In this document: piece after piece, positions 4,381-24,345 of the stretch
How the letters are laid out: each line of letters starts with the position of its first letter
How positions within the stretch are numbered: position 1 is the first letter of the stretch
Source of the DNA: an uncultured delta proteobacterium
GTDB lineage: Bacteria > Myxococcota_A > Polyangia > Fen-1088
NCBI GenBank assembly: GCA_963796685.1
Contig: CAWCMR010000011.1
Location: 263,236-327,235 of the forward strand
Direction: 5' to 3'
DNA length: 64,000 nucleotides
Notes under the pieces: model-generated
Databases searched by the model: none
The model's input: the letters and a program-made list of their open reading frames with translations, nothing else
Told to the model about the DNA's origin: nothing
Translations under genes and position numbers: made by a program

Positions 4381-4906
4381 CTACCCATCGATCGCGGCCC
4401 ACATGGAGCGGAGAACAGCTCCTGGGAGCGTTTCAAGGTGTCGCGAGTTCGTGTCAACACGTGCTGGCGTGTCACGTGTGGGAGTTCCTCGACGCAATAT
4501 CATGGGCTCGTCGTGACTGCGGCATGGCTGTGTTCGCGCGCCGGAACTGGCGATCGTCTGCTCCACGCCAAATCGCCGGTCCGAAAGTGGACGGTTTCCG
4601 TGTTTCAAGGGTGGCGGGAGCCAAAAGACTCCGTCGCTACCCCCAACAATCGGATCCTGAACACTCCGAGCTTCAATTCGATGAACACCCACTCGTCCGT
4701 TTGTTCGTGGAGCGGGCGCAAATGCTTTGAACCCGCCTCCAGCCGGCCTCGGGCAGTCGGAGGACTGAGAACCATCTTCGCCCCCAGCAACAGCGCGGCG
4801 GCGGCTTCGGTGTTGAGGACGTTCAAACCCGGATGACGTCTCATTGTGCGACAACGTGAACGTTGTCGATTTCGTCGGTCTTTCTTGGCTAGGGGAGTCG
4901 GACTCT

Positions 4907-6820: not shown

Positions 6821-6841
6821 ACTGTGAACTTAGTTGACAGT
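6821..6841. promoter_or_regulatory. Putative MarR operator
   Basis: ACTGTGAAC-TTA-GTTGACAGT (8/9 inverted repeat) just upstream of the MarR start, in the divergent intergenic region. Confidence 0.55.
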
Positions 6842-6883
6842 GTGTCCATGGCGCCCGATACTTCGAGTATGCGGCGGGAGGGG

Positions 6884-8442
6884 ATGCACGATTCACCGAA
6901 GATCAGCACGACGAGGCGCCACGGCCGCCGTCGTCTCGAGCGGCGTCGCTGTCATGGCGCTGGCACTCAGCGCCTGTAGCGGCTCGCCCTCGGAACCGGT
7001 CGCCTCCTCCGAGCGGGTGACCGGCGGTCCGACGGGGCACTACGTGGTGCCGGCGGGGATCCACAAGATCAAGCACATCATCGTCATCGAGCAGGAGAAC
7101 CGCTCCTTCGACAGCTACTTCGGCACCTATCCGGGCGCCGACGGGCATCCCGATGCGAGAACGGCGTGCCGACCGTCTGCGTGCCGGTGCCGACCGGAGG
7201 CTGCCAGGCGCCCTACCACGACACCGCCGATGTGAACGGCGGCGGTCCGCACAACGTGCGCGGCCGCCCGGATCGACGTCGACGGCGGCAAGATGGACGG
7301 CTTCGTCTACGCCGCCTCGGGGGTGAAGAAGGGGTGCGGGGCGAACGTCAACGACCCGGCCTGCTCGAACTCGGCGGCACCCGACGTCATGGGGTACCAC
7401 ACGGCGGCCGAGATCCCGAACTACTGGACCTACGCCAAGGACTTCGTGCTCGACGACCACATGTTCGAGCCGGTGAAGTCGTGGTCGCTCCCCGACCACC
7501 TCTACCTCGTCTCGGGCTGGTCGGCCAAGTGCTCGAGCCCGGCGCCGTCGAGCTGCAGCAACCAGATCAAGGGTCCCTACACGCCGCTGCAGATGCAGGA
7601 GTACGTGGACCAGGCCATGGCGACCGGGACGGCCGACGGTCACCAACGCCTGGACCGACATCACCTGGCTGCTCTACAACAAGCACGTCCCCTGGGCCTA
7701 CTACGTCCAGACCGGGGACCAGCCCGACTGCGAGAACGACGGAGCGGTCGCGTGCGCCCCGGTCGCCCAGAGCTATCAGACCCCCGGGATCTGGAACCCG
7801 CTCCCCCTCTTCGAGGACGTCCAGAAGGACCACCAGCTCCGCAACATCCAGCCGCTCGACAACTACTTCACCGCCGCCAGGAAGGGAACGCTGCCCTCGG
7901 TCATGTGGATCGCACCCTCCCAGGCCGACAGCGAGCACCCTCCGGCGAGCGTCCACCAGGGGCAGGCCTACGTCACCGCGCTGATCAACGCCGCCATGAA
8001 GAGCCCCGACTGGGACTCGACGGCCATCTTCTTGCAGTGGGACGACTGGGGGGGCTTCTACGACAGCGCGGTGCCCGCCGGCGGTGGACCAGAACGGCTA
8101 CGGCCTGCGGGTCCCGGCACTCGTCATCTCGCCCTATGCCAAGCGGGGCTACATCGACTCCCAGACGCTCAGCAGCGACGCCTACCTCAAGTTCATCGAG
8201 GACGACTTCCTGGGCGGCTCCCGGCTCAACCCCAAGACCGACGGACGCCCGAACCCAGGGCCGACGTCCGCGAGGACGAGAAGGTCCTCGGCAACATGCT
8301 GCAGGACTTCGATTTCAACCAGAGGCCCCGGGCACCGGTCCTGCTGGCGACCAACCCCGCGACGGACTCCCCCACCATCCCGGCGTACTTCAGCGGAAAA
8401 GGGCCCTGCGTCGGCTGCACGGCGACGCCGCCGAGCACCTAA
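6884..8442 (+). CDS. Phospholipase C / phosphoesterase family lipoprotein (frameshifted)
   Basis: Lipobox LSAC; IKHIIVIEQENRSFDSYFGTYPG, YAKDFVLDDHMF, SEHPP, WDDWGGFYD and GLRVPALVISPYAK motifs. Confidence 0.9.
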
Positions 8443-8509
8443 GGGGCCCGGGGCGGTCCGATGGTTGCGCCCCGCCCGAGATCGGGCCCTCCGATGCGAG
8501 AGTGGCGTT

Positions 8510-8965
8510 ATGACTCCAGAGACGGAAGAAACGCCGAGCCAGGACTTTGACGTCTTGGTGATGCGCTTCGTTGGGATCGGCCACTTTGCAGTTGACTTCA
8601 ATCTCTACGGAAGCGTCGGCAGGTACGCAACCCTCACCTTGAGACCAACCGACTTTCGGATACAGAAGACCAATCGTCACGGCATGCCCAAAGAAGGCAG
8701 TGCCGCCTTCCCAACGTTATGGACTTGGAGGTTGACGGAGATTCGCTCTGCACGGGTCTTCAAAAGTCCGTGGTGGATACGGATGGCCGGGATCAACGCA
8801 AGCTACCCGTCTGGAATGGTGTTGGACATGGGAGCTTCGGGTTGGAATCTACTGCTCTTCAGTCGGCAGTTGGACTCCCTGCTCCAAGCCTTCGGCGATC
8901 AAGGCGTGGGCATTGCAAAGAACCCAAGAACGCTCACACCGCTGGTATTTCGCCGCGAGATTTAG
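8510..8965 (+). CDS. Hypothetical protein (beta-rich, possibly PH-like)
   Basis: Open frame MTPETEETPSQDFDVLVMRF... with protein-like composition. Confidence 0.55.
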   Translation: MTPETEETPSQDFDVLVMRFVGIGHFAVDFNLYGSVGRYATLTLRPTDFRIQKTNRHGMPKEGSAAFPTLWTWRLTEIRSARVFKSPWWIRMAGINASYPSGMVLDMGASGWNLLLFSRQLDSLLQAFGDQGVGIAKNPRTLTPLVFRREI

Positions 8966-16451: not shown

Positions 16452-16758
16452 AGGAGATGTTGGTGGTGGACGAGGAGCGCACACGAGTGCCAGGGCAGGT
16501 GGGCGGTTGCTGTGCGCTCCCCGTGTCCTCGGCTGCGTCCGACAAGTTGCACCGGAGTTGGGAACCGGGCCGATTGGCGACCCGCGCAGTACGCGTCCGT
16601 GACACGATAGCGGATAGGTCAGATCGGAGATGCGTCCGTGACCTTGGGACTAACTCGGCCTTGGCAGACGGAGCACCCCGCCCGAGTCTGGGTCAACTCG
16701 GTCCCCCGAAACGCTAGGTACCATTCCCGAAGAGGCTGAGGGCAGCGGGAGGGCGGCG

Positions 16759-17195
16759 ATGGCGGTCGACGTGACAACCGAGATCATGATTGAACGACCA
16801 GTCGAGGTCGTGGCTTTGTATGCCGGTGACCCGTCCAAGGCACCTTCCTGGTACGAGAACATCAAGTCCATCGAGTGGAAGACCGACCCCCCTCTGAGGG
16901 TGGGATCAAAGGTGGCATTCGTCGCTCATTTCTTGGGCGGGAACTCAACTACACGTACGAAATAGTCGATCTTGTCCCCGCTAAGCGCCTCGTCATGCGT
17001 ACCGCTGAGGGGCCATTCCCCATGGAGACCACCTACGCCTGGTCCGCCGTCGAGGGATCGACCCGAATGACGCTGCGAAACCGAGGAGAGCCGTCGGGAT
17101 TCTCCAAGCTGTCTGCACCCATCATGGCTATGGCGATGAAGCGAGCCAACCGCAAGGATCTCGACCACCTGCGGATTCTCCTCGAATCACAGTAG
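16759..17195 (+). CDS. SRPBCC family protein (frameshifted)
   Basis: IERP...[12 protein letters not shown] / [11 protein letters not shown]...[11 protein letters not shown]...KRANRKDL. Confidence 0.85.
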
Positions 17196-18013: not shown

Positions 18014-18351
18014 TGTGGAGGCTGTAGAACCGAAGTCGGCGATGCCAATGGGAATTGGAAGGGGGGCGAACGCGACACAAGGCCGGCTCCGTGATGGTGC
18101 GAGTCCCCGGGCGCCCGCGGGCCGGAAAGAGCCCTTACGTATTCGAACACATCCTGGTGGCGGAAGGACTGCTCCGGACGCATCTCGTGGAGGGCCTACC
18201 GGAGATCCTCGAGCTGTGGACGCGTCCACAGCCCTCAGGCATCCGAGTGAGCGACGCCGTAACGTGGGCGCGGTCGATCTACGACCGTTACGTGGATGTC
18301 GGTGCACCTCCAACTGTGCTCACGGTCTCCCCTGAGCATCCTTGGGGCTAA
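18014..18351 (+). pseudogene. HNH endonuclease remnant, copy 1 (5'-truncated, catalytic HHIN segment deleted)
   Basis: Near-identical to 20510-20881; YVFEHILVAEGLL..HLVEG / LELWTRPQPSG; lacks the ETVHHINAIRD segment present in copy 2. Confidence 0.8.
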
Positions 18352-18371
18352 CGGGAATGCTTTCGAACCCC
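18343..18371 (+). repeat. att-like degenerate copy of tmRNA/tRNA 3' end (site A)
   Basis: TGGGGCTAACGGGAATGCTTTCGAACCCC; 25/29 identical to 20207-20235; resembles TGGAGGTGGCGGGAATCGAACCC at 23304. Confidence 0.6.
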
Positions 18372-18612
18372 GACGCCGCCCTCCTCATCCTCCTTGGTCT
18401 GGAGAAATAGCAAGGGCTGCCATCCGGGGCCGATGAAGTCGGGGATCCCGAGCGTGCCCGACCAGCGGTGGCTCATGCGTCCCTGGTCGAGCGGCCGGGT
18501 GACCTCGATCAGTTCTGAGGGGCTCGCCTGGGCTCACAAGGCCTCTGACCGGGATAGCTGGCGGTTGGTCAGGAATCACCACCGGAGGTCCCGGCGAGCC
18601 AAACTGAAGCCC

Positions 18613-19950
18613 GTGGATCGACCCGAGACCCGGTACGCCGCGGTTGATGACGCTGACATCGCATACCAGGCCACCGGTGACGGTCCTCTCGACTTGCTGT
18701 TCTGCTACGGCTTCGGCAGCGCCATCGACCTTGGCTGGGACGAGGCCACCACGTACCCCGAGTTCTATCGCCGCCTGGCCTCGTTCAGCCGACTCATCCT
18801 CTTCGATCGGCGAGGAACGGGAGCCTCCGACCCCATTTCCGCCGGCGTCTTCCCCACCTGGGAGTCGTGGGCCGAGGATGCCGGCGCTGTCCTCGACGCC
18901 GTCGACGCCGAGCGGGCGGTTCTTTTCGGCGCCCTCGACGCCGGGGCGCTGGCAGTCCTCTACGCCGCCATGCACCCCGAGCGGGTGCAAGCCTTGATCC
19001 TGCTCAACAGCAGCGCCCGATTCTGCCGAGACGAGGACTACCCCATCGGCGTAGCACCCGAGGCGCTCGAGACATTGATTGGCATTGTGGAGCAGGCGTG
19101 GGGAACCCGCCAGCTCGTCACTGCCGTCAATCCAGCCATGGCCGACGATGATGCCTTCCTGGAGGCCGTAGCTCGTGTCATGCGGGCGGCGGCGACCCCG
19201 CGTCGAGCGGCGACCCAGTTTCGCTACCTCTTGAGCAACGTCGACGTCCGTCCGGCACTCGACCTGGTGCAGGTGCCAACCCTCGTCCTAAGCGTGGCAG
19301 AGAGTGTCTTCGTGCCCGTCGAGCAGGGGCGCTACTTGGCCGAGCACATTGTCGGTGCCCGATTCGTCGAGCTTCCTGGGGCTGAGGTCGGCCTCTCTCC
19401 TCCGCTGCTTGGTATCGTCGACGAGATCGAGGAGTTCGTCACGGGCGAGCGTGGCACGGCCGATGTCGACCGAGTCCTGGCCACGGTGCTGTTCACCGAC
19501 ATCGTCCGGTCGACTGAACGAGCCGCCCAGTTGGGTGACCGGCGCTGGCGATCGCTACTTGATGCCCACGATCGCGCCGTGCGGGAGCAGTTCCGACGCT
19601 TCCGGGGTCGGGAGGTGAAGACCACCGGGGACGGTTTCCTGGCGTCATTTGACGGGCCGGCACGCTCTATCCGCTGCGCCCAGGCCATCGTCGAAGCCAC
19701 CCGCTCGCTCGGCGTCGATGTCCGGCTCGGCCTGCACACAGGGGAGTGCGAGGCTCGCGGCGACGATCTCGGAGGGCTCGCCGTCCATATCGCGGCGCGC
19801 GCGGGCGCGTTGGCCGACCCGGGTCAGGTCCTCGTATCGGGTACCGTCAAGGACCTGGTCGTGGGATCGGGCATCGAGTTCAACGACCGCGGCGAGGAGG
19901 AGCTGAAGGGCGTACCTGGGTCGTGGAGGTTGTTCGCCGTGAGACAGTGA
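18613..19950 (+). CDS. Alpha/beta hydrolase-class III adenylate/guanylate cyclase fusion (LipJ/Rv1900c-like)
   Basis: FDRRGTGASD hydrolase motif; VLFTDIV.ST, VKTTGDG, GLHTGE, AVHIAAR, ELKGVPG cyclase motifs; intact ORF. Confidence 0.92.
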   Translation: MDRPETRYAAVDDADIAYQATGDGPLDLLFCYGFGSAIDLGWDEATTYPEFYRRLASFSRLILFDRRGTGASDPISAGVFPTWESWAEDAGAVLDAVDAERAVLFGALDAGALAVLYAAMHPERVQALILLNSSARFCRDEDYPIGVAPEALETLIGIVEQAWGTRQLVTAVNPAMADDDAFLEAVARVMRAAATPRRAATQFRYLLSNVDVRPALDLVQVPTLVLSVAESVFVPVEQGRYLAEHIVGARFVELPGAEVGLSPPLLGIVDEIEEFVTGERGTADVDRVLATVLFTDIVRSTERAAQLGDRRWRSLLDAHDRAVREQFRRFRGREVKTTGDGFLASFDGPARSIRCAQAIVEATRSLGVDVRLGLHTGECEARGDDLGGLAVHIAARAGALADPGQVLVSGTVKDLVVGSGIEFNDRGEEELKGVPGSWRLFAVRQ

Positions 19951-20206
19951 CCGACTGGATATCCGCGGTGACATCCAAGTAGGCGGGCATCCTGTACGTG
20001 CCGGTCCCAGTCGGACCTTGCCTGCTGGCCGGCACAACCGTCGGGTAGCGCATACTCGGGGATCCCGGTGGGGTCGCGGATCTTCAGGTCGCGAGCAAGA
20101 TCACCGGTTTGTAACCGAGTCAGCGTCCGGTCCACCTCCCCGGTATGCCATCACGAAGATTTTGCGTCGCAGGGATTCGAAAGAGCGCGGTTACCTCTGG
20201 GACGCG

Positions 20207-20235
20207 TGGTACTAGCGAGAATGCTTTCGAACCCC
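20207..20235 (+). repeat. att-like degenerate copy of tmRNA/tRNA 3' end (site B)
   Basis: TGGTACTAGCGAGAATGCTTTCGAACCCC; shares an exact 17-mer GAATGCTTTCGAACCCC with site A. Confidence 0.6.
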
Positions 20236-20380
20236 AGCGACCTCTTCTTCGCACTGAAGGATCTGACTGGCAACAAGAGGCCCGATAGCGGTATTCGCCT
20301 CCGTCAAGTTGCCCTCGACCCAAGTCTTTGCACCGACAGCACCAAGTTCTCGTCGATACACCCCCGAGCTACCGTCGGTC

Positions 20381-20881
20381 ATGCGTGAGAGGCAGTGCAA
20401 GGAATGCGAGAGGATCTTCCAGCCATCCAGTAGGCATCTCCGGTGTCCTGCCTGCAGGGCCAAGGATCTGTGTGCTTGTGGGAAGGCAAAGCAGACAGAA
20501 TCAGAGACATGTGCAGGCTGTAGAACCGAAGTCGGCGATGCCAACGGGAATTGGAAGGGGGAGAGAAGGCGACACAAGGCCGGCTCCGTGATGGTGCGAG
20601 TCCCCGGCAACCCGCGGGCGGGAAGGAGCCCTTACGTATTCGAACACATCCTGGTGGCGGAAGGGTTGCTCCGGAGGCATCTCGTGGAGGGCGAAACGGT
20701 CCATCACATCAACGCCATCCGAGACGAACCCGTCCTGAGAAGGTCGAACTCTGAACGCGGCCACAGCTCTCAGGTATCCGCGTGAGCGACGCTGCAAATT
20801 TGGACGCGGTCGACCTACGACCGGTACGTGGATGTCGGTGCACCTCCAACGGTGCTCACGGTCTCCCCTGAGCATCCTTGG
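20381..20881 (+). pseudogene. Zn-finger + HNH endonuclease, copy 2 (frameshift and in-frame TGA)
   Basis: CKEC, CPAC, CACG and CAGC pairs, then GNWKG...YVFEHILVAE...ETVHHINAIRD.; the Trp codon of LELW in copy 1 is TGA here. Confidence 0.8.
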
Positions 20882-21189
20882 AGCAGGTTCAACGTTTCTT
20901 GAACCCTCTTTCCGATCCTGACACAAGGCTGGATCTCGAACGCCTTCACAGAGTCTTCGCAGGTCACGGGTCATCTTGGCTCGACAGTGGCCCTCGTCTA
21001 CCGACCCCGAGGCAGCGGCAGGTTCACCTCAGCGAGGGGGATCGCGGCAGGCTTGTGGCTGCCTATCTGGCTGGCGACACCGTCAGGAACCTGGCTAACA
21101 CTTTCCAGCTCCATCGTGGAACGGTAAGCGAGATTCTGTCCCGCCATGGTGTGATTGATCGGCCGCATGGGCCTCGCCCAAAACGGTAG
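20878..21189 (+). CDS. Small helix-turn-helix DNA-binding protein
   Basis: LVAAYLAGDTVRNLANTFQLHRGTVSEILSRHGV; starts within a third att-like site (TTGGAGCAGGTTCAACGTTTCTTGAACCC). Confidence 0.7.
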   Translation: MEQVQRFLNPLSDPDTRLDLERLHRVFAGHGSSWLDSGPRLPTPRQRQVHLSEGDRGRLVAAYLAGDTVRNLANTFQLHRGTVSEILSRHGVIDRPHGPRPKR

Positions 21190-21297
21190 CCGGGGGTTAG
21201 ATCGAACGTCGCTACGGTGTCAGTGGCTGAGATCGTCAAGCGGTGAAGGCCTCTAGTCACTGTTCTCTCCACCGCTTGCAAAAGCCGATTCCCTGAC

Positions 21298-21615
21298 TCA
21301 GTTGCCAGGAAGTGCGCCAGGTTCGGCGCCGCCGAAGACAGCTGCAATCCGGTCAAGGTGACGCGCCCAGAGTTGGTGATGGAAGGCGGCATCCTCCGCG
21401 CTCAGGCCGGAGAACTGGACCCTCACAGTTGTGCTGTCACCCGTCGGGATGAGGGTGATCTCAATGAGTGCAGGTGTCGTCGTCTCGTTGTCGGTTCCGT
21501 GACGGTCCCATTCCATGACCAGGCGGTGCGGGCGATCGACTTCGATGTAGCGGCCAGTGATCGCAGTCCCGCCAAGGTCAAGGTGGAACATGTTCCCCGG
21601 CCGAGGAGTCGTCAT
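21298..21615 (-). CDS. SRPBCC/AHA1-like protein (probably N-terminally truncated)
   Basis: GRYIEVDRPHRLVMEW...IEITL...TTVRVQFSGL...HHQLW..HLDRI; lacks the usual first strand and helix. Confidence 0.7.
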   Translation of the reverse strand: MTTPRPGNMFHLDLGGTAITGRYIEVDRPHRLVMEWDRHGTDNETTTPALIEITLIPTGDSTTVRVQFSGLSAEDAAFHHQLWARHLDRIAAVFGGAEPGALPGN

Positions 21616-22541
21616 GAAATGAAGCGGTGGATGGCCTCATTGGCGTGGTCCTGAAAGGACGGGTTGGCCAGATCGGGGAAGATATCCGCTTGGTCGACCA
21701 AGGGACCCGTCAATTTGTTGGCCGCGCTGGCGTAGAACACACCACTCAACAGAGTCGGATCGATGACGCCGTCGACGAGTCGCTTCGAGCCCACTTCAAG
21801 GTCGTGGGAAATGCCGAGATGGGGCATGATGTGTTTGGCCGCAAAGCGCAGCGGTAGCGCTGCGCCGCCGGCGGCTTCGGTGCCCGTGGTGTTGCCGGGG
21901 CTCACAGTGATAAAGCGTAGGTCGGGGTATTGGCGCGCCAGGTGGGCCATCCATAAGGCCCCGATGTACTTGACCTGACCGAAGGCGAGATTCCGATCAA
22001 ATTTTCTGTCAGCGAAGTAGCTGCCGTCGATGACGGTAGTGAGTTCGTCGGTAGAGGTTGAAGCAAAGGTGGGCCGTTTGAACCCCAACTTCGGTATTCC
22101 CCTGGCTGCTTCACTCGCGGCGAACACCGCTACCTCGCGAAGTCGGTTCTGGGTCAGGAGCCCTTCGAGGAGAACGGCGTGACCGAGAGCGTTCGTTGCG
22201 AACAGTTTGGTAGTCCCGTCAGCGGTCAATTCCATCAAGGTCTTGCTGCCGATTACACCAGCGTTCATGACCAGGGCGTCGAGGGTTCCGTCGATGGCCG
22301 CTAGGCCGGCGCGGACCGAACCAAGATCGGCGACGTCCATCAGAATGATGTCGAAGATGTGTCGGCCGGTCATGGCTTCGAGATCGGCCTTTGCCATTGT
22401 CGCTCGATTCTTGTTCCGGCACGCCAGATAGATGCGGCCCATCTCAGGACGTAACGCCAGTTGCCGGGCCACATCCTTGCCGATCCCGACGTTGGCGCCC
22501 GTGATCAGTACCGTCTTTCCTGGGCCGTTGAGGTCAGTCAT
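21612..22541 (-). CDS. Short-chain dehydrogenase/reductase
   Basis: TVLITGANVGIG, LVMNAG, ITVSPG; the catalytic YxxxK position reads FGQVK. Confidence 0.9.
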   Translation of the reverse strand: MTDLNGPGKTVLITGANVGIGKDVARQLALRPEMGRIYLACRNKNRATMAKADLEAMTGRHIFDIILMDVADLGSVRAGLAAIDGTLDALVMNAGVIGSKTLMELTADGTTKLFATNALGHAVLLEGLLTQNRLREVAVFAASEAARGIPKLGFKRPTFASTSTDELTTVIDGSYFADRKFDRNLAFGQVKYIGALWMAHLARQYPDLRFITVSPGNTTGTEAAGGAALPLRFAAKHIMPHLGISHDLEVGSKRLVDGVIDPTLLSGVFYASAANKLTGPLVDQADIFPDLANPSFQDHANEAIHRFIS

Positions 22542-22568
22542 ACGTTGCTCTATCCCCTCGCTGCAAAT

Positions 22569-22618
22569 TGGGTGGCGCAACCCATTCTGACCTTTCGACA
22601 CTGGGTTGTCAAACCCAG
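22569..22618. promoter_or_regulatory. Two TetR operator palindromes
   Basis: TGGGTG-GCGC-AACCCA (22569-22584) and C-TGGGTT-GTCA-AACCCA-G (22601-22618) between the divergent SDR and TetR genes. Confidence 0.7.
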
Positions 22619-22639
22619 AATTTCAGCTAACATCGGAGC

Positions 22640-23245
22640 ATGGTCAACGAGACGAGTGACCGGCCGAGGCTCACCCCCAAGGGAGCACGCACCCGGGCAC
22701 GAATAGTGGAGGAGGCCGCCGCCCTTATCCATGAGCGCGGGGTTGCGGCCACCACCTTGGAAGACGTCAGGGTGGCGGCGGAAGTCAGTGGCTCTCAGAT
22801 GTCCCACTACTTCCCCGGCAAGAACGATCTCGTGCAGGCGGTCATCGACTACCACGCCGACGCCATCGTCAATCGCAATCGGCAGGCGCTCAGCAGAGCG
22901 AACGGCGTCGAAGCCTGGCGGAACATGGTGATCACGGCAGCGAAGCGCACCAAAGCAAAGGGGGGATGCCAACTTGGCTCGCTCGTTAGCCAACTCGCCG
23001 AGAGTGACCCCGAGGCCCGAGCGCTCATCGGGGCAGGGTTCGCTGAGTGGGCAGCCGCTATCGGCGATGGACTCAGATCCCTTCATGCCGACGGCAAACT
23101 CCGGTCCGACATCGATCCGGACGACCTTGCCACTACTCTGCTCGCCGCGCTCGAAGGAGGGCTTCTACTCGGTCAGGTACTTCGGAGTTCCCGCCCGATC
23201 GAAACTGCGGTCGATACCCTCCTCGCCCTCGCCATTGGCAGATGA
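22640..23245 (+). CDS. TetR/AcrR family regulator (NemR/LmrA-like C-terminus)
   Basis: TRARIVEEAA...TTLEDV..AAEVSGSQMSHYFPGK; GGCQLGSL. Confidence 0.92.
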   Translation: MVNETSDRPRLTPKGARTRARIVEEAAALIHERGVAATTLEDVRVAAEVSGSQMSHYFPGKNDLVQAVIDYHADAIVNRNRQALSRANGVEAWRNMVITAAKRTKAKGGCQLGSLVSQLAESDPEARALIGAGFAEWAAAIGDGLRSLHADGKLRSDIDPDDLATTLLAALEGGLLLGQVLRSSRPIETAVDTLLALAIGR

Positions 23246-23303
23246 GGCCAAGCGGCGCAAACAGGTGTTCGCGATCGCCGAACTACACCAATGTAGTTAC
23301 CCG

Positions 23304-23653
23304 TGGAGGTGGCGGGAATCGAACCCGCGTCCTTCGGCTTCTCATCGGGCCTTCTCCGAGCGCAGCCGGCAGCTAGAGTCTCGGGACCCCCGCCGCCGCC
23401 GGCGAATTCGAGGGTCCCCAACCGACTTTTGGTGTCCCCGGCGGCCAATCGGTGGAACCGCTCGGGTAAGCCCCGCTAGATGACGCCCGCTACCGGCCTG
23501 CAGGGCTGAGACCGGACGGACGGGCTACTTATTAAGCAGCCAGCGCGAGCTGAGGCTCGGCATTTGTTTTTTGTTCCGGCTCTTTAACGTGGCTCCGGAG
23601 ACCACGGCTCGCTTCTCCCGAATTGACGACCAAAGTCGAAACCGATCACCCCC
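23304..23653 (-). ncRNA. ssrA: tmRNA
   Basis: 5' GGGGGTGATCGGTTTCGAC; 3' GGACGCGGGTTCGATTCCCGCCACCTCCA; acceptor stem with G3-U70; tag (A)AEPQLALAA-TAA-TAA at 23561-23529; adjacent to smpB. Confidence 0.97.
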
Positions 23654-23720
23654 TGTGTCTGTGTCGGGTCCCATCCTACCGGCGGGTGCAGGGCGCTGAG
23701 CCCGACGGGGGACGTAGGAT

Positions 23721-24277
23721 TCAGTCGTATTCCTTGCGGGCCCCCCGGCCCACGCTCTTGCCCGGCCGCGAAGCGGGCCTCGCGCGCCGCGTCACGCTCG
23801 GCGTCGCGTGTGGCGATGGCGTGGCGCTTGTCGTAGAGGCGCCGGCCCTTGGCCAGGGCCAGCTCCACCTTGGCCCGGCCGTCTTTGAAGTAGATCGAGA
23901 GGGGCACGAGCGTGAGGGCCTTCTGCTGGGTCTGGCCCATGAGCTCGTCGATCTCGTCGCGGTGCAGGAGGAGCTTGCGCCGGCGCTCGGGATCATGGGC
24001 GCCGAAACCCGCGGCGTGCTCGTAGGGGGGGATGTGCACCCCGAGCAGCCAGGCTTCGCCTCCCTCGACCCGCGGCGTAGGCGTCGGCCAGGGTGACCCG
24101 CCCGGCCCGCAGGGACTTCACCTCGCTTCCCTGCAGGGCGAGGCCACATTCGTAGGTCTCGAGGATGTCGTAGTCGTGGCGGGCGCGACGGTTCCGGGCG
24201 ACCGTCTTGATCCGGTCGGTGCCGTCGTCGGGGACGCGGCGCGACGCCCGACGTCCCGGTCCTTTCGCTGCGGCCAC
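23721..24277 (-). CDS. smpB: SsrA-binding protein (frameshifted)
   Basis: [29 protein letters not shown] / HIPPYE...RKLLLH...[11 protein letters not shown]. Confidence 0.95.
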
Positions 24278-24345
24278 CCGCGGAACGGTACCCGGCGTCA
24301 CGCCTGCCGGGTCCGTGCCGGGGGCGAAGGCCCCCGGTACCCTCG

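Follow-up and report, generated by a model that had tools for sequence, protein, structure and literature searches.

Degenerate HNH endonuclease genes and candidate tmRNA-end relics beside ssrA, and their intact relatives at the tmRNA end of other bacteria

The ssrA locus and its two HNH copies

The window, by which we mean the whole 64-kb stretch of contig C11 that was analysed, contains a tmRNA gene (ssrA) and smpB together with two copies of a Zn-finger/HNH endonuclease gene, three sites (A, B and C) that resemble the tmRNA 3' end, and several putative cargo genes. The features are as follows.

4708–4734, + strand: possible fourth tmRNA 3'-end relic, TGGAGCGGGCGCAAATGCTTTGAACCC, with a GCTT(T)-type insert (18/23 with a 4-nt insertion)
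18014–18351, + strand: HNH copy 1, apparently a dead remnant, ending ...SPEHPWG-stop
18343–18371, + strand: site A, candidate relic of the antisense tmRNA 3' end, decayed and with 5 extra nt (GCTTT) where the T-loop would be (19/23)
18394–19950, + strand: alpha/beta-hydrolase fused to an adenylate/guanylate cyclase domain, putative cargo (PF00211, 7.7e-14; PF00561, 6.3e-10)
20166–20241, no strand: imperfect inverted repeat (pair I20) with 18-nt arms, 89% complementary, spaced by 40 nt, the right arm being the core of site B
20207–20235, + strand: site B, candidate relic of the same type as A, with one mismatch in an 18-nt core (18/23)
20236–20380, + strand: leader of ~145 nt from site B to the start codon of HNH copy 2, also conserved in L045 and L077
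20381–20881, + strand: HNH copy 2, full length with three CxxC pairs, broken, ending ...SPEHPW (86% identity to P0001)
20878–21189, + strand: ORF with a weak helix-turn-helix (HTH) signature, gene status uncertain
20879–20906, + strand: site C, with TGGAG (first 5 nt) as in the tmRNA end, then diverged and ending GAACCC (<18/23)
21298–21615, − strand: AHSA1/SRPBCC-type protein, putative cargo (PF08327, 1.6e-14)
21612–22601, − strand: short-chain dehydrogenase (SDR), putative cargo (PF00106, 7.4e-14)
22640–23245, + strand: TetR-family regulator, putative cargo, ending 58 nt from the tmRNA 3' end (PF00440, PF16925)
23301/23303–23653, − strand: tmRNA gene, tag AEPQLALAA, proposed integration target (ARAGORN and Rfam, 150.4 bits)
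23587–24301, − strand: smpB, in two split frames

By Rfam the tmRNA is uninterrupted and without an intron; its tag also occurs in several Acidimicrobiales loci, and the antisense tmRNA 23-mer at 23304–23326 is a single occurrence at up to 3 mismatches. For the ssrA-smpB flank, L045 and L077 are the nearest relatives, at 85% and 79% identity. The locus sits in a 110-kb Acidimicrobiales-like tail that was probably mis-joined to another organism's contig: C11 is very probably a chimera with its join near 216,887, 46 kb beyond the window, and this suspected chimerism leaves in doubt that the host is the genome with which the window was binned. Other genes of the window are split as well, and some of the frame changes in HNH copy 2 could thus be assembly errors; most of the loci used for comparison likewise come from error-prone MAGs.

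HNH copy 1 lacks the Zn-ribbon N-terminus, and a 38-nt deletion takes out its HH..N catalytic motif; its closest relative is the gene in L077 (93% across 282 columns). HNH copy 2 with its leader is 87–90% identical to L045 and L077, and its defects are a change from NG to NA, at least two frame changes and a TGA that replaces the Trp of ELW, the catalytic region reading HHINAIRDE before the frame is lost. An intact His-His..Asn..Asn motif is absent from both copies; the relatives keep H108, H109, N111 and D115. With the motif deleted in one copy and the frame lost in the other, both are evidently pseudogenes, barring assembly errors. Neither broken copy is matched by Pfam at 1e-3, and we assign them to PF13392 because copy 2 is 86% identical to P0001, a member of that family. 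These are the only HNH copies in the 7.3-Mb genome. The first-pass annotation of this DNA had described them as a duplication, and this is real, since 18014–18202 matches 20510–20699 at 91.6% and 18199–18348 matches 20734–20884 at 86%, with different indels. It had also placed the ends of the HNH copies at the tmRNA-like sites, which is true of sites A and C, where both copies read ...SPEHPW, but site B is unfused and lies 174 nt upstream of the ATG of HNH copy 2.

All three sites read as described, at 18343 (A), 20207 (B) and 20879 (C), but their likeness to the tmRNA end is at chance level genome-wide. With the tmRNA 23-mer, scored with one insertion allowed over 14.6 Mb (both strands), 81 positions reached at least 19/23 and 543 at least 18/23. 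This corresponds to ~0.7 and ~4.8 positions per 64-kb window, so that the likeness of A, B and C to the tmRNA end is not significant alone, when scored in this way. The relic at 4708–4734 is likewise at chance level by itself and is listed solely for its insert, which resembles that of A and B. The exact 17-mer GAATGCTTTCGAACCCC is common to A and B, which gives 2 matches at up to 3 mismatches against 0.12 expected; genome-wide it finds 21 positions at up to 3 mismatches and is exact only at A and B, which are 75% alike across 44 nt. The local repeat formed by sites A and B is real, and site C is weak, being alignable to A and B only with indels. The search for a canonical direct repeat of the tmRNA end in the window's genome found none, the last 120 nt giving only chance-level 14–17-mers.

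Related genomes add to this picture. Site A begins at the Trp codon that closes HNH copy 1, and some 60 nt past it still align weakly with the leader after site B. Site B is the left edge of a conserved unit bearing HNH copy 2, and homology to L045 begins exactly there, at 20206. The L045 orthologue of site B (7825–7851) has the same GCTTT insert that had been noticed in A and B, matches the tmRNA at 21/23 (counted by eye) and bounds a 674-nt site-leader-HNH-tmRNA unit on the left. The window's homology to L045 and L077 extends to 20883, inside site C, which keeps only 5 nt of the tmRNA end compared with the 21–23-nt scars of other loci. As candidate att relics, A, B and C would be decayed likenesses of the tmRNA end, not significant alone but supported by related genomes.

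Genes similar to the putative cargo are found beside HNH genes in other loci. The hydrolase-cyclase architecture also occurs 5' of an HNH gene elsewhere (for example L091:1213-2610), the short-chain dehydrogenase is 81% identical to L060:8933-9835, which lies directly past an HNH gene with a scar, and the TetR regulator shows 86% identity to L060 and L085, with homology extending to ~23253 and weakly on to ~23291. Site C had been taken to supply the start of an HTH gene; ORF 20878–21189 does begin there, but its HTH matches are sub-threshold (E 0.011–0.076, with none at 1e-4). The suggested search for an upstream integrase found none: PF00589 and PF00239 are absent from C11:216,888–327,235, including the 70-kb flank of the window, no integrase was found by Pfam among the 71 ORFs of window positions 1–25000, and no Resolvase-family (DsiB-like) serine recombinase was found in the foreign tail of C11, to which the serine-recombinase search was confined. 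Collectively, the window appears to hold a fossil stack made up of two dead HNH copies, three decayed tmRNA-end relics and cargo genes, with integrase absent.

HNH relatives at the tmRNA end of other genomes

For comparison we used 80 HNH copies in 74 loci of other genomes, picked by protein pattern alone. A complete convergent tmRNA gene adjoins 48 of the 80 on the opposite strand at a distance of up to 125 nt, and another 17 have only the last ~22 nt of a tmRNA as their 3' neighbor (match of at least 18/22). Among the 73 copies whose 3' end is present, 65 adjoin a tmRNA or a scar, in several orders and in one Chloroflexia locus. The central prediction of the first-pass annotation, that relatives of the HNH gene recurrently sit at the ssrA 3' end, therefore holds.

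The ~22-nt tmRNA remnant behind HNH genes has the appearance of a classic T-loop att scar. The block of identity from the T-loop to the 3' end measures 21–23 nt, and in many loci the scars stop at one common point, ...CGAACC. Williams has reportedly distinguished sublocation classes of integration into tRNA and tmRNA genes. Of 19 abutting copies of full length, 14 have an ORF that extends 42–235 nt into the tmRNA gene. Past ...EHPW, WR follows in 8 of 12 proteins, 7 of which read WRWR(E/K)SN..., the translated antisense of the tmRNA, as in the window's ORF 22974–23483.

Some genomes contain stacks of 4–6 copy-plus-scar units. Genome G024 has five exact 21-mers on one strand across ~78 kb, with HNH matches amounting to ~5 copies over ~95 kb of the same contig and strand and three integrase genes within the array. 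Genome G025 has four repeats on contig C21, where the HNH matches represent at least 4 copies within 29 kb and PF00589 is absent. A minimal repeat-leader-HNH-tmRNA unit of ~650–675 nt occurs in L045 and L066, and the window has one between B and C; a left-hand repeat that bounds the HNH unit is recognisable in only 2 of the 48 abutting loci, as well as in the window and, decayed, in L077. Recombinases among neighboring genes were sought in sets of 82 and 85 selected ORFs within 8 kb. In L101 a tyrosine integrase gene lies next to the tmRNA, and in L108 an integrase accompanies a pSAM2-type RepSA as in AICEs, with an HNH-plus-scar behind in each case. Of the hallmarks of tDNA islands, an integrase next to the target gene is thus seen in L101 and L108 and not in the window, and the far-end direct repeat is present in 17 related copies (at least 18/22) and absent from the window's genome. 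Because HNH genes recur at the ssrA end, stacks exist elsewhere and L045 has an orthologue of site B, serial accumulation at ssrA is supported as a reading of these sequences. The serial addition of modules proposed earlier finds support in these stacks and the L045 unit, but in the window itself A, B and C are decayed and a canonical repeat is absent; overall, the earlier observation is confirmed in part and its interpretation partly supported.

The HNH gene is patchily distributed: of 151 genomes of the order, 11 have it and the other 140 gave no match. In the family of 57 genomes, most tmRNA matches start precisely at the end of the tmRNA. The tmRNA junction of G192, the closest relative, is free of HNH, and a fragment of the gene with a scar lies 13.7 kb off. 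Pairwise identities of HNH and tmRNA genes correlate at r = 0.35 (276 pairs) with strong outliers in both directions, and hosts with 97% identical tmRNAs have HNH genes that are only 64–74% identical. Copies from the same genome do not cluster in the HNH tree, in which few branches are well supported (6 starred of 56). In the window's own clade, HNH identity (87–90%) is close to that of the core flank (79–85%), and this apparent co-divergence fits long vertical residence. Median dN/dS is 0.12 (97 usable of 179 pairs, displaced copies included), a value indicative of purifying selection on the HNH gene.

PF13392 (HNH_3) matched P0003, P0001 and P0013 at 40.7, 34.7 and 34.2 bits (cut-off 24.8), and it is precomputed for most of 120 listed relatives. 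P0003 matched phrog_20891, annotated as "HNH endonuclease", at 1.9e-38, with 11 further phage HNH families matched; matches occur in 177 phage records, and P0003 is 46–55% identical to HNH genes of Streptomyces, Mycobacterium and Gordonia phages. P0013 also has a weak match, below cut-off, to the I-TevI zinc finger (I-TevI_ZnF). By these similarities the gene appears akin to the free-standing homing endonucleases of actinophages. Two attributes of homing endonucleases are seen, namely a nuclease of a family known from homing endonucleases and presence or absence at one precise site among close relatives.

Comparison with known systems

In the parts of McMurdie et al. 2011 (PMC3146451) available to us, the ssrA islands of Dehalococcoides are described as lying in tandem within ~100 kb downstream of a single tmRNA gene. 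They resemble the present arrays in having a conserved module at the tmRNA-side repeat, on the reverse strand, and in that some units are without it. That module comprises helper genes and a serine recombinase, DsiB/DsiA, whereas here the same position is held by a Zn-ribbon/HNH_3 endonuclease of ~170 aa, with an ORF that adjoins the tmRNA end or overlaps it. As in the Islander/TIGER integrase islands, so far as the available part of PMC4383910 describes them, the element restores its target gene, and the far end is recognisable by a 3' fragment that has been displaced; the 21–23-nt block and the real integrase examples within the same arrays (L101, L108) extend this likeness. In contrast to such islands, most units here are without an integrase among the ORFs scanned, HNH rather than int adjoins the repeat, and the repeats of the window have decayed and contain 5 inserted nt.

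Mobile free-standing HNH homing endonucleases are carried by Cluster J mycobacteriophages (PMC3706429, in part), one of which is among our phage matches, and T4 SegB lies beside tRNA genes, as cited in the part of PMC6582537 at hand. Like such phage genes, the present family is small and shows precise intergenic insertion next to a conserved gene, presence or absence among close relatives, and multiple copies. Unlike them, it is chromosomal and has a single cellular target (the ssrA 3' end), duplicated target ends, cargo and arrays; the available part of PMC3706429 reports no comparable fixed target for the phage genes. Group I introns, some with LAGLIDADG homing endonuclease genes, occupy the tmRNA T-loop (Nawrocki, Petrov & Williams 2025, PMC11915505, in part), and the likeness is that in both cases a homing-type element takes advantage of the conserved T-loop and 3' end. 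Here the intron is absent, and the nuclease is of the HNH_3 type, outside the gene and on the opposite strand.

Possible origins of the array

We lean, tentatively and somewhat short of thinking it probable, to a reading in which islands would have accumulated as an array at ssrA of an Acidimicrobiales-type genome, the region being the end of this array nearest the tmRNA; copies of a small selfish homing-type HNH gene (Zn ribbons plus an HNH_3 nuclease), a fossil in the window, would punctuate it. The home position of this gene would be directly 3' of ssrA and convergent with it, the frame usually entering the antisense of the tmRNA end. DNA would enter at the tmRNA T-loop as HNH-capped units or as ordinary integrase islands, each entry displacing the resident HNH gene with the old last ~22 nt of the tmRNA, and repeated entry would build stacks of HNH-scar-cargo units; in the window, the cyclase and the SRPBCC-SDR-TetR cargo would now lie between HNH copies and ssrA. 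Behind this reading stand the positional link, the scars, the stacks, the patchy distribution and purifying selection, all evident from the compared loci. The HNH enzyme itself may cut at or near the ssrA 3' end, after which host repair would insert or copy the HNH unit with its attached cargo, using the short tmRNA-end repeat as homology. Since tyrosine-integrase or AICE islands lie between the HNH-plus-scar and the tmRNA in L101 and L108, and integrases within the G024 array, integrases could have made every scar, and with integrase-bearing islands at the same hotspot HNH-driven insertion is a step that we infer.

It is unlikely, though worth serious consideration, that conventional site-specific recombinases made the arrays wholly, with tyrosine integrases of islands and AICEs crossing over in the T-loop and the HNH gene a passenger or an old resident of the ssrA flank, displaced with each scar and sometimes co-excised in tandem islands (accretion, cis-mobilisable elements). 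The integrases at the hotspot in L101 (at the tmRNA) and L108 (with RepSA), each with HNH-plus-scar behind, and the trio within the G024 array speak for it, as do a scar extent expected of T-loop integrases and the Dehalococcoides ssrA islands, which have the same tandem 20-bp repeats and module-less units read as cis-mobilisable (PMC3146451, in part). It gives no account, however, of one HNH family lying at a tmRNA or scar in 65 of 73 copies, of the base-precise junction, of purifying selection on displaced copies or of an HNH-only unit flanked by tmRNA-end repeats, and PF00589 is absent from the G025 array contig and from C11:216,888–327,235. We consider it improbable that HNH-capped islands without an integrase are integrated by the HNH protein itself, which would cut the 22-nt tmRNA end in chromosome and incoming element so that host end-joining or annealing crosswise would leave att-like direct repeats. 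Like the integration modules of known ssrA islands (PMC3146451, in part), the HNH gene does lie proximal to attL. Most HNH-capped units are without integrases among the ORFs scanned in their 8-kb flanks, the minimal unit has HNH as its only gene, and same-genome copies are of different lineages, as if each came with its own unit; integrases could nevertheless act in trans. HNH nucleases are also not known to act as integrases, which speaks against this idea.

Strong purifying selection, and an ORF that overlaps the tmRNA gene on the antisense strand, would suit a gene that serves the host at ssrA, either guarding the hotspot against elements or exerting an antisense effect on tmRNA expression, with A, B and C as ordinary, decayed borders of a segment that was duplicated locally, A and B perhaps being the two ends of a duplication around the cyclase gene. 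We regard this as very doubtful, given the 140 of 151 genomes of the order that have no HNH match, the multiple copies with pseudogenes among them, the kinship to phage homing endonucleases, the correlation of only r = 0.35 between HNH and tmRNA identities (276 pairs) with few starred branches in the HNH tree (6 of 56), and an orthologue of site B in the same place of its unit elsewhere, which argues against a by-product of local duplication. Least credible is a metagenome mis-assembly that created the duplication or the tmRNA adjacency. The probable chimerism of C11 near 216,887, the many genes split by frame shifts and the interval 23253–23304, which no public run bridges, do point that way, but the suspected join is 46 kb outside the window, the HNH copies differ by 6–19% with different indels, which a collapsed or duplicated pile of reads would not show, both sides of the tmRNA junction share L045 and L077 as nearest relatives, and in these relatives HNH beside tmRNA is the rule.

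A link of HNH genes to ssrA arrays was not found described in the literature searched. That intact HNH genes are fused to the tmRNA end in dozens of related bacteria suggests mobile DNA of a little-known kind, which would be piling up there.

HNH genes at the tmRNA 3' end

The tmRNA gene (ssrA) of the window is encoded on the minus strand, and the antisense of its 3' end reads TGGAGGTGGCGGGAATCGAACCC on the plus strand at 23304. Two copies of a small Zn-ribbon/HNH_3 endonuclease gene (hereafter the HNH gene) lie to its left, in the following layout.

Genes at the window ssrA locus
18014-18351: HNH copy 1
18394-19950: hydrolase-cyclase gene
20381-20881: HNH copy 2
20878-21189: doubtful HTH-like ORF
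21298-21615, minus strand: AHSA1/SRPBCC gene
21612-22601, minus strand: SDR gene
22640-23245: TetR gene, left of the tmRNA
23301-23653, minus strand: tmRNA gene, tag AEPQLALAA

These are the only HNH copies in the 7.3-Mb genome, and they are 86-92% identical to each other in two blocks. Copy 1 is missing the zinc-ribbon N-terminus, and a deletion of 38 nt takes out its catalytic HH..N stretch; copy 2 requires at least two frame changes and carries a TGA at a position where its relatives have Trp; both copies are dead. Some of the HNH frame shifts may be assembly errors, since other window genes are also split, with smpB (23587-24301), a phosphoesterase gene (6834-8962) and a polyketide-cyclase-like gene (16654-17192) each occupying two or three frames. 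Together with a nine-G run at ~17937, these split genes suggest an indel-prone assembly in which single frame shifts are not to be taken for pseudogenisation. Copy 1 also contains a perfect 20-nt palindrome at 18213-18232 (CTGTGGACGCGTCCACAG with flanks), where copy 2 has diverged. NCBIfam holds no family for the HNH gene or the HTH-like ORF, and a PDB sequence search at E values up to 1 gave no match.

At E values up to 1e-3, the copy 2 ORF retrieves 151 relatives, most of them with PF13392 (HNH_3). Past the motif ...EHPW, 8 of 12 fetched relatives run on with WR, and in 7 of these 8 the extension is WRWR(E/K)SN..., which is the translated tmRNA antisense exactly as it appears in window ORF 22974-23483. 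An ORF ending ...EHPWRWRESNP should be annotated as an HNH gene read into the tmRNA antisense. A protein-pattern scan with one genome per species yielded 74 loci, mostly from Acidimicrobiales or Acidimicrobiaceae MAGs, with a few from Streptosporangiaceae, Mycobacteriales or Frankiales, one from Chloroflexia and two distant hits in Bacillus. ARAGORN placed a tmRNA in 52 of the 74, on the strand opposite the HNH gene in every case. Among the 80 HNH copies at these loci, 48 abut a full tmRNA (within 125 nt; in ~20 the HNH match ends one base short of the tmRNA end) and 17 more are followed by only a tmRNA 3'-end fragment (at least 18 of 22 positions matching), so that HNH relatives do recurrently end at the ssrA 3' end, the positional link that the first-pass annotation had proposed to test. 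Eight copies have nothing tmRNA-like behind them, and in seven the HNH match is missing its 3' end. Where the HNH gene is full-length and abuts the tmRNA, its ORF, stop included, extends 42-235 nt into the tmRNA gene in 14 of 19 copies.

The tmRNA fragments share a common stop point, TGGAGGTGGCGGGAATCGAACC, after which unrelated sequence follows; this shared end-point is a signature of T-loop insertion with gene regeneration. At nine loci without an adjacent tmRNA, Rfam found just one distant, cut tmRNA (locus L063). A second class of HNH 3' flank was observed in loci L043 (8514-8700), L063, L065 and L091 and with the proteins P0001 and P0006. Here a conserved TGGGGTGTTCATGAAACTCC..TGACCAGGGGAAAC followed by two occurrences of GTCTCCACA takes the place of the tmRNA sequence. 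Rfam found nothing in this flank, which may mark where some other mobile element, inserted at the same junction, ends.

Possible mobility and purifying selection of the HNH gene

Of 151 genomes sampled from the order to which the Acidimicrobiales contig L045 belongs, just 11 yielded the HNH gene, a patchy distribution. A survey of 57 genomes in the family of genome G021 gave a match in 53, with the tmRNA match starting exactly at the tmRNA end in most. Four of these genomes have at least 250 nt of HNH beside the tmRNA, several carry displaced HNH fragments 14-24 kb away, and the closest relative (G192) has a junction without HNH. In several relatives (G188, G208, G225 and G218) the last 38-60 nt of HNH stand alone beside the tmRNA; these stubs either mark a point at which deletions repeatedly end or are short stretches kept for their own sake.

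Pairwise identity of the HNH gene follows that of the tmRNA poorly (r = 0.35, 276 pairs). Hosts with 97%-identical tmRNAs can have HNH genes that are just 64-74% identical, cross-class pairs reach 72-74%, and copies from the same genome do not cluster in the HNH tree. The median dN/dS is 0.12 (range 0.06-0.23; 97 usable of 179 pairs, with displaced copies counted), values that place the gene under purifying selection. The HNH gene matches phrog_20891 ('HNH endonuclease') at 1.9e-38 and shares 46-55% identity with HNH genes from phages of Streptomyces, Mycobacterium and Gordonia, among them the Cluster J phage Thibault. For Cluster J, the phage HNH genes have been described as homing endonucleases that are free-standing and mobile (PMC3706429).

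Sites A, B and C and the origin of the contig

The first-pass annotation had marked three plus-strand sites, A (18343), B (20207) and C (about 20879, more diverged), as resembling the antisense tmRNA 3' end. The sequences it quoted are present in the window, but their resemblance to the tmRNA end is not significant when taken alone. With one insertion allowed, A fits the tmRNA 23-mer at 19/23, B at 18/23 and C at fewer than 18, and 81 genome positions reach the score of A and 543 that of B. A genome-wide search for a canonical direct repeat of the tmRNA end found none. A and B are 75% alike across 44 nt and share an exact 17-mer (2 matches against 0.12 expected). These two exact copies are the only ones, which rules out a genome-wide repeat or REP element. 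Minus-strand coding, in which both sites would read ...GVRKHSR*, has no homologue in the genome, and frame conservation on the plus strand is equally good; this reading was abandoned and DNA-level homology with L045 is preferred. A tentative resemblance of 20913-20935 to part of the HNH interior (repeat family D5) was put down to chance.

Homology between the window and L045 begins exactly at B (20206) and stops at C (20883). The L045 orthologue of B, TGGAGCTAGCGGGAATGCTTTCGAACCCC, lies 175 nt upstream of an HNH gene that abuts a tmRNA; it matches the tmRNA end at 21/23, counted by eye, and carries the same GCTTT insert. In locus L066 a near-canonical repeat precedes the HNH gene by 149 nt, and L077 shows a decayed one. 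These upstream sites define a conserved unit of ~650-675 nt, in which a tmRNA-end relic is followed by a leader, then the HNH gene and finally the tmRNA end. Site A is a relic of the same type located after copy 1 and is followed by ~60 nt of leader-like sequence and then the cyclase gene. Site C retains only TGGAG, and its alignment to A and B needs indels; further variants at this kind of junction occur in the relatives G194 and L046. We take A and B to be old tmRNA ends, displaced and passed down along with the HNH unit, and C to be a junction that is more decayed or differently formed. By our own count the window sites match the L045 site at 29/33, which is not above the identity of the flanking DNA and so implies no present function.

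The contig (C11) that carries the window is very probably a join of two lineages. Its first ~217 kb match same-genus genomes (80-96% at 195-215 kb), this match is absent at 225-245 kb, and the last 110 kb, the whole window included, resemble Acidimicrobiales MAGs. Positions 1-3870 of contig C7 equal C11:213014-216887, which lies 46 kb left of the window start, at 99%, after which both diverge. The right flank of the window shares 85% identity across 8 kb with the Acidimicrobiales contigs L045 and L090. We conclude from these comparisons that the last 110 kb are very probably a mis-joined Acidimicrobiales fragment, 46 kb inside which sits the HNH/tmRNA locus. The binned genome also holds a second, intact smpB and a second tmRNA (G000:C21:69365-69722, equal to L002 1501-1858; 141 bits, missed by ARAGORN). 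Nine same-genus genomes carry tmRNAs 84-99% identical to this second, genus-typical one; the window tmRNA has no match beyond 30 nt in any of them. Directly at the 3' end of the second tmRNA we observed a 385-aa tyrosine integrase and a small excisionase-like HTH ORF (L002 1864-3305), a neighbourhood that looks like a classic ssrA island of the main organism.

GC content steps from 0.61-0.66 to 0.70-0.75 exactly at the window tmRNA, and apart from the right-hand 40 kb no long stretch of the genome exceeds 0.70 GC. Because the nearest relatives are the same on both sides, we read this step as separating island from core within one organism. Public reads covered at most 17% of sampled words per run; contigs from four runs were short, came from relatives and left both the TetR-tmRNA junction and the HNH copies unbridged, and loose contig ends at 23253 and 23299-23302 vary between runs.

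Stacked arrays and how they may arise

Stacks of the kind expected from serial addition at ssrA, as proposed in the first-pass annotation, are common in the relatives. Locus L072 has three repeats and L074 four HNH copies. Genome G024 has five exact 21-mers on one strand across ~78 kb, and the HNH matches that share this contig and strand amount to ~five copies over ~95 kb. A G025 contig (C21) has four repeats, and its HNH matches cluster into at least four copies within 29 kb. Ordinary accessory genes make up the cargo. Two other Acidimicrobiaceae genomes have the window SDR-TetR pair (21612-23253) in their ssrA arrays at 81-86% identity (L060:8933-11440 and L085:1-1858); in L060 the pair follows a scar and has an extra SDR gene between its members. 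Metagenome contigs extending beyond 23253 run on like L060 and L085 and do not enter the tmRNA. Inside the 95-kb G024 array, three adjacent tyrosine-recombinase genes on one strand (C4:571,714-574,085) look like a recombinase-trio element carried as cargo.

We tentatively favor a reading in which the HNH gene is a selfish, homing-type gene. It would reside at the ssrA 3' end and move together with a copied stretch, the final ~22 nt of the tmRNA, often with cargo, and integrase islands would enter at the same hotspot. Conventional integrase elements do use this hotspot: a tyrosine integrase adjoins the tmRNA in L101, as do an integrase and a pSAM2-type RepSA in L108, and in both loci an HNH-plus-scar unit lies behind the element. 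The main rival, which we consider less likely, is that integrases made every junction and the HNH gene is a passenger. Most HNH-capped units have no recombinase among the scanned ORFs (82 representatives taken from 326 selected clusters upstream and, beyond the scars, 85 downstream ORFs), and PF00589 has no match on the G025 array contig. The first-pass annotation had proposed looking upstream of the window for a serine or tyrosine integrase; there is no recombinase of either type in the window or the 46 kb upstream of it.

A bolder variant of the homing-type reading, which we regard as improbable, would make HNH the only enzyme needed and the sole mobility gene of integrase-free elements aimed at the tmRNA 3' end. 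The nuclease would break the T-loop-to-CCA segment, the element would bring its own copy of the 22-nt segment and host repair would insert the element, thereby regenerating the tmRNA and leaving att-like repeats; repeated rounds would then build cassette arrays of accessory genes. Such accumulation would resemble that of an integron, with a homing nuclease in place of the recombinase.

Few landing sites of mobile DNA are as well known as the tmRNA, where traffic is attributed to site-specific recombinases, and tDNA islands in general are already known. Tandem ssrA islands with 20-bp repeats, described in Dehalococcoides (PMC3146451), are comparable to the arrays found here. Homing endonucleases in tmRNA introns are likewise known (PMC11915505). 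The nearest case that the literature search returned, HNH genes inside mycobacterial tRNA clusters (PMC6582537), differs from an HNH gene at the tmRNA 3' end. Our full-text literature search returned no report linking an HNH endonuclease to the tmRNA 3' end.

One HNH family sits with base precision at the tmRNA 3' end, or at displaced relics of it, in dozens of Actinomycetota genomes, where it is maintained by selection, is patchy and is stacked with accessory genes. Even read conservatively, the finding adds to ssrA island biology a selfish gene whose homing site in the cell is defined. If the HNH nuclease drives or biases ssrA insertion, it would represent a natural nuclease with a conserved, essential-gene-linked target and a new route by which soil Actinomycetota may gather metabolic and regulatory genes.
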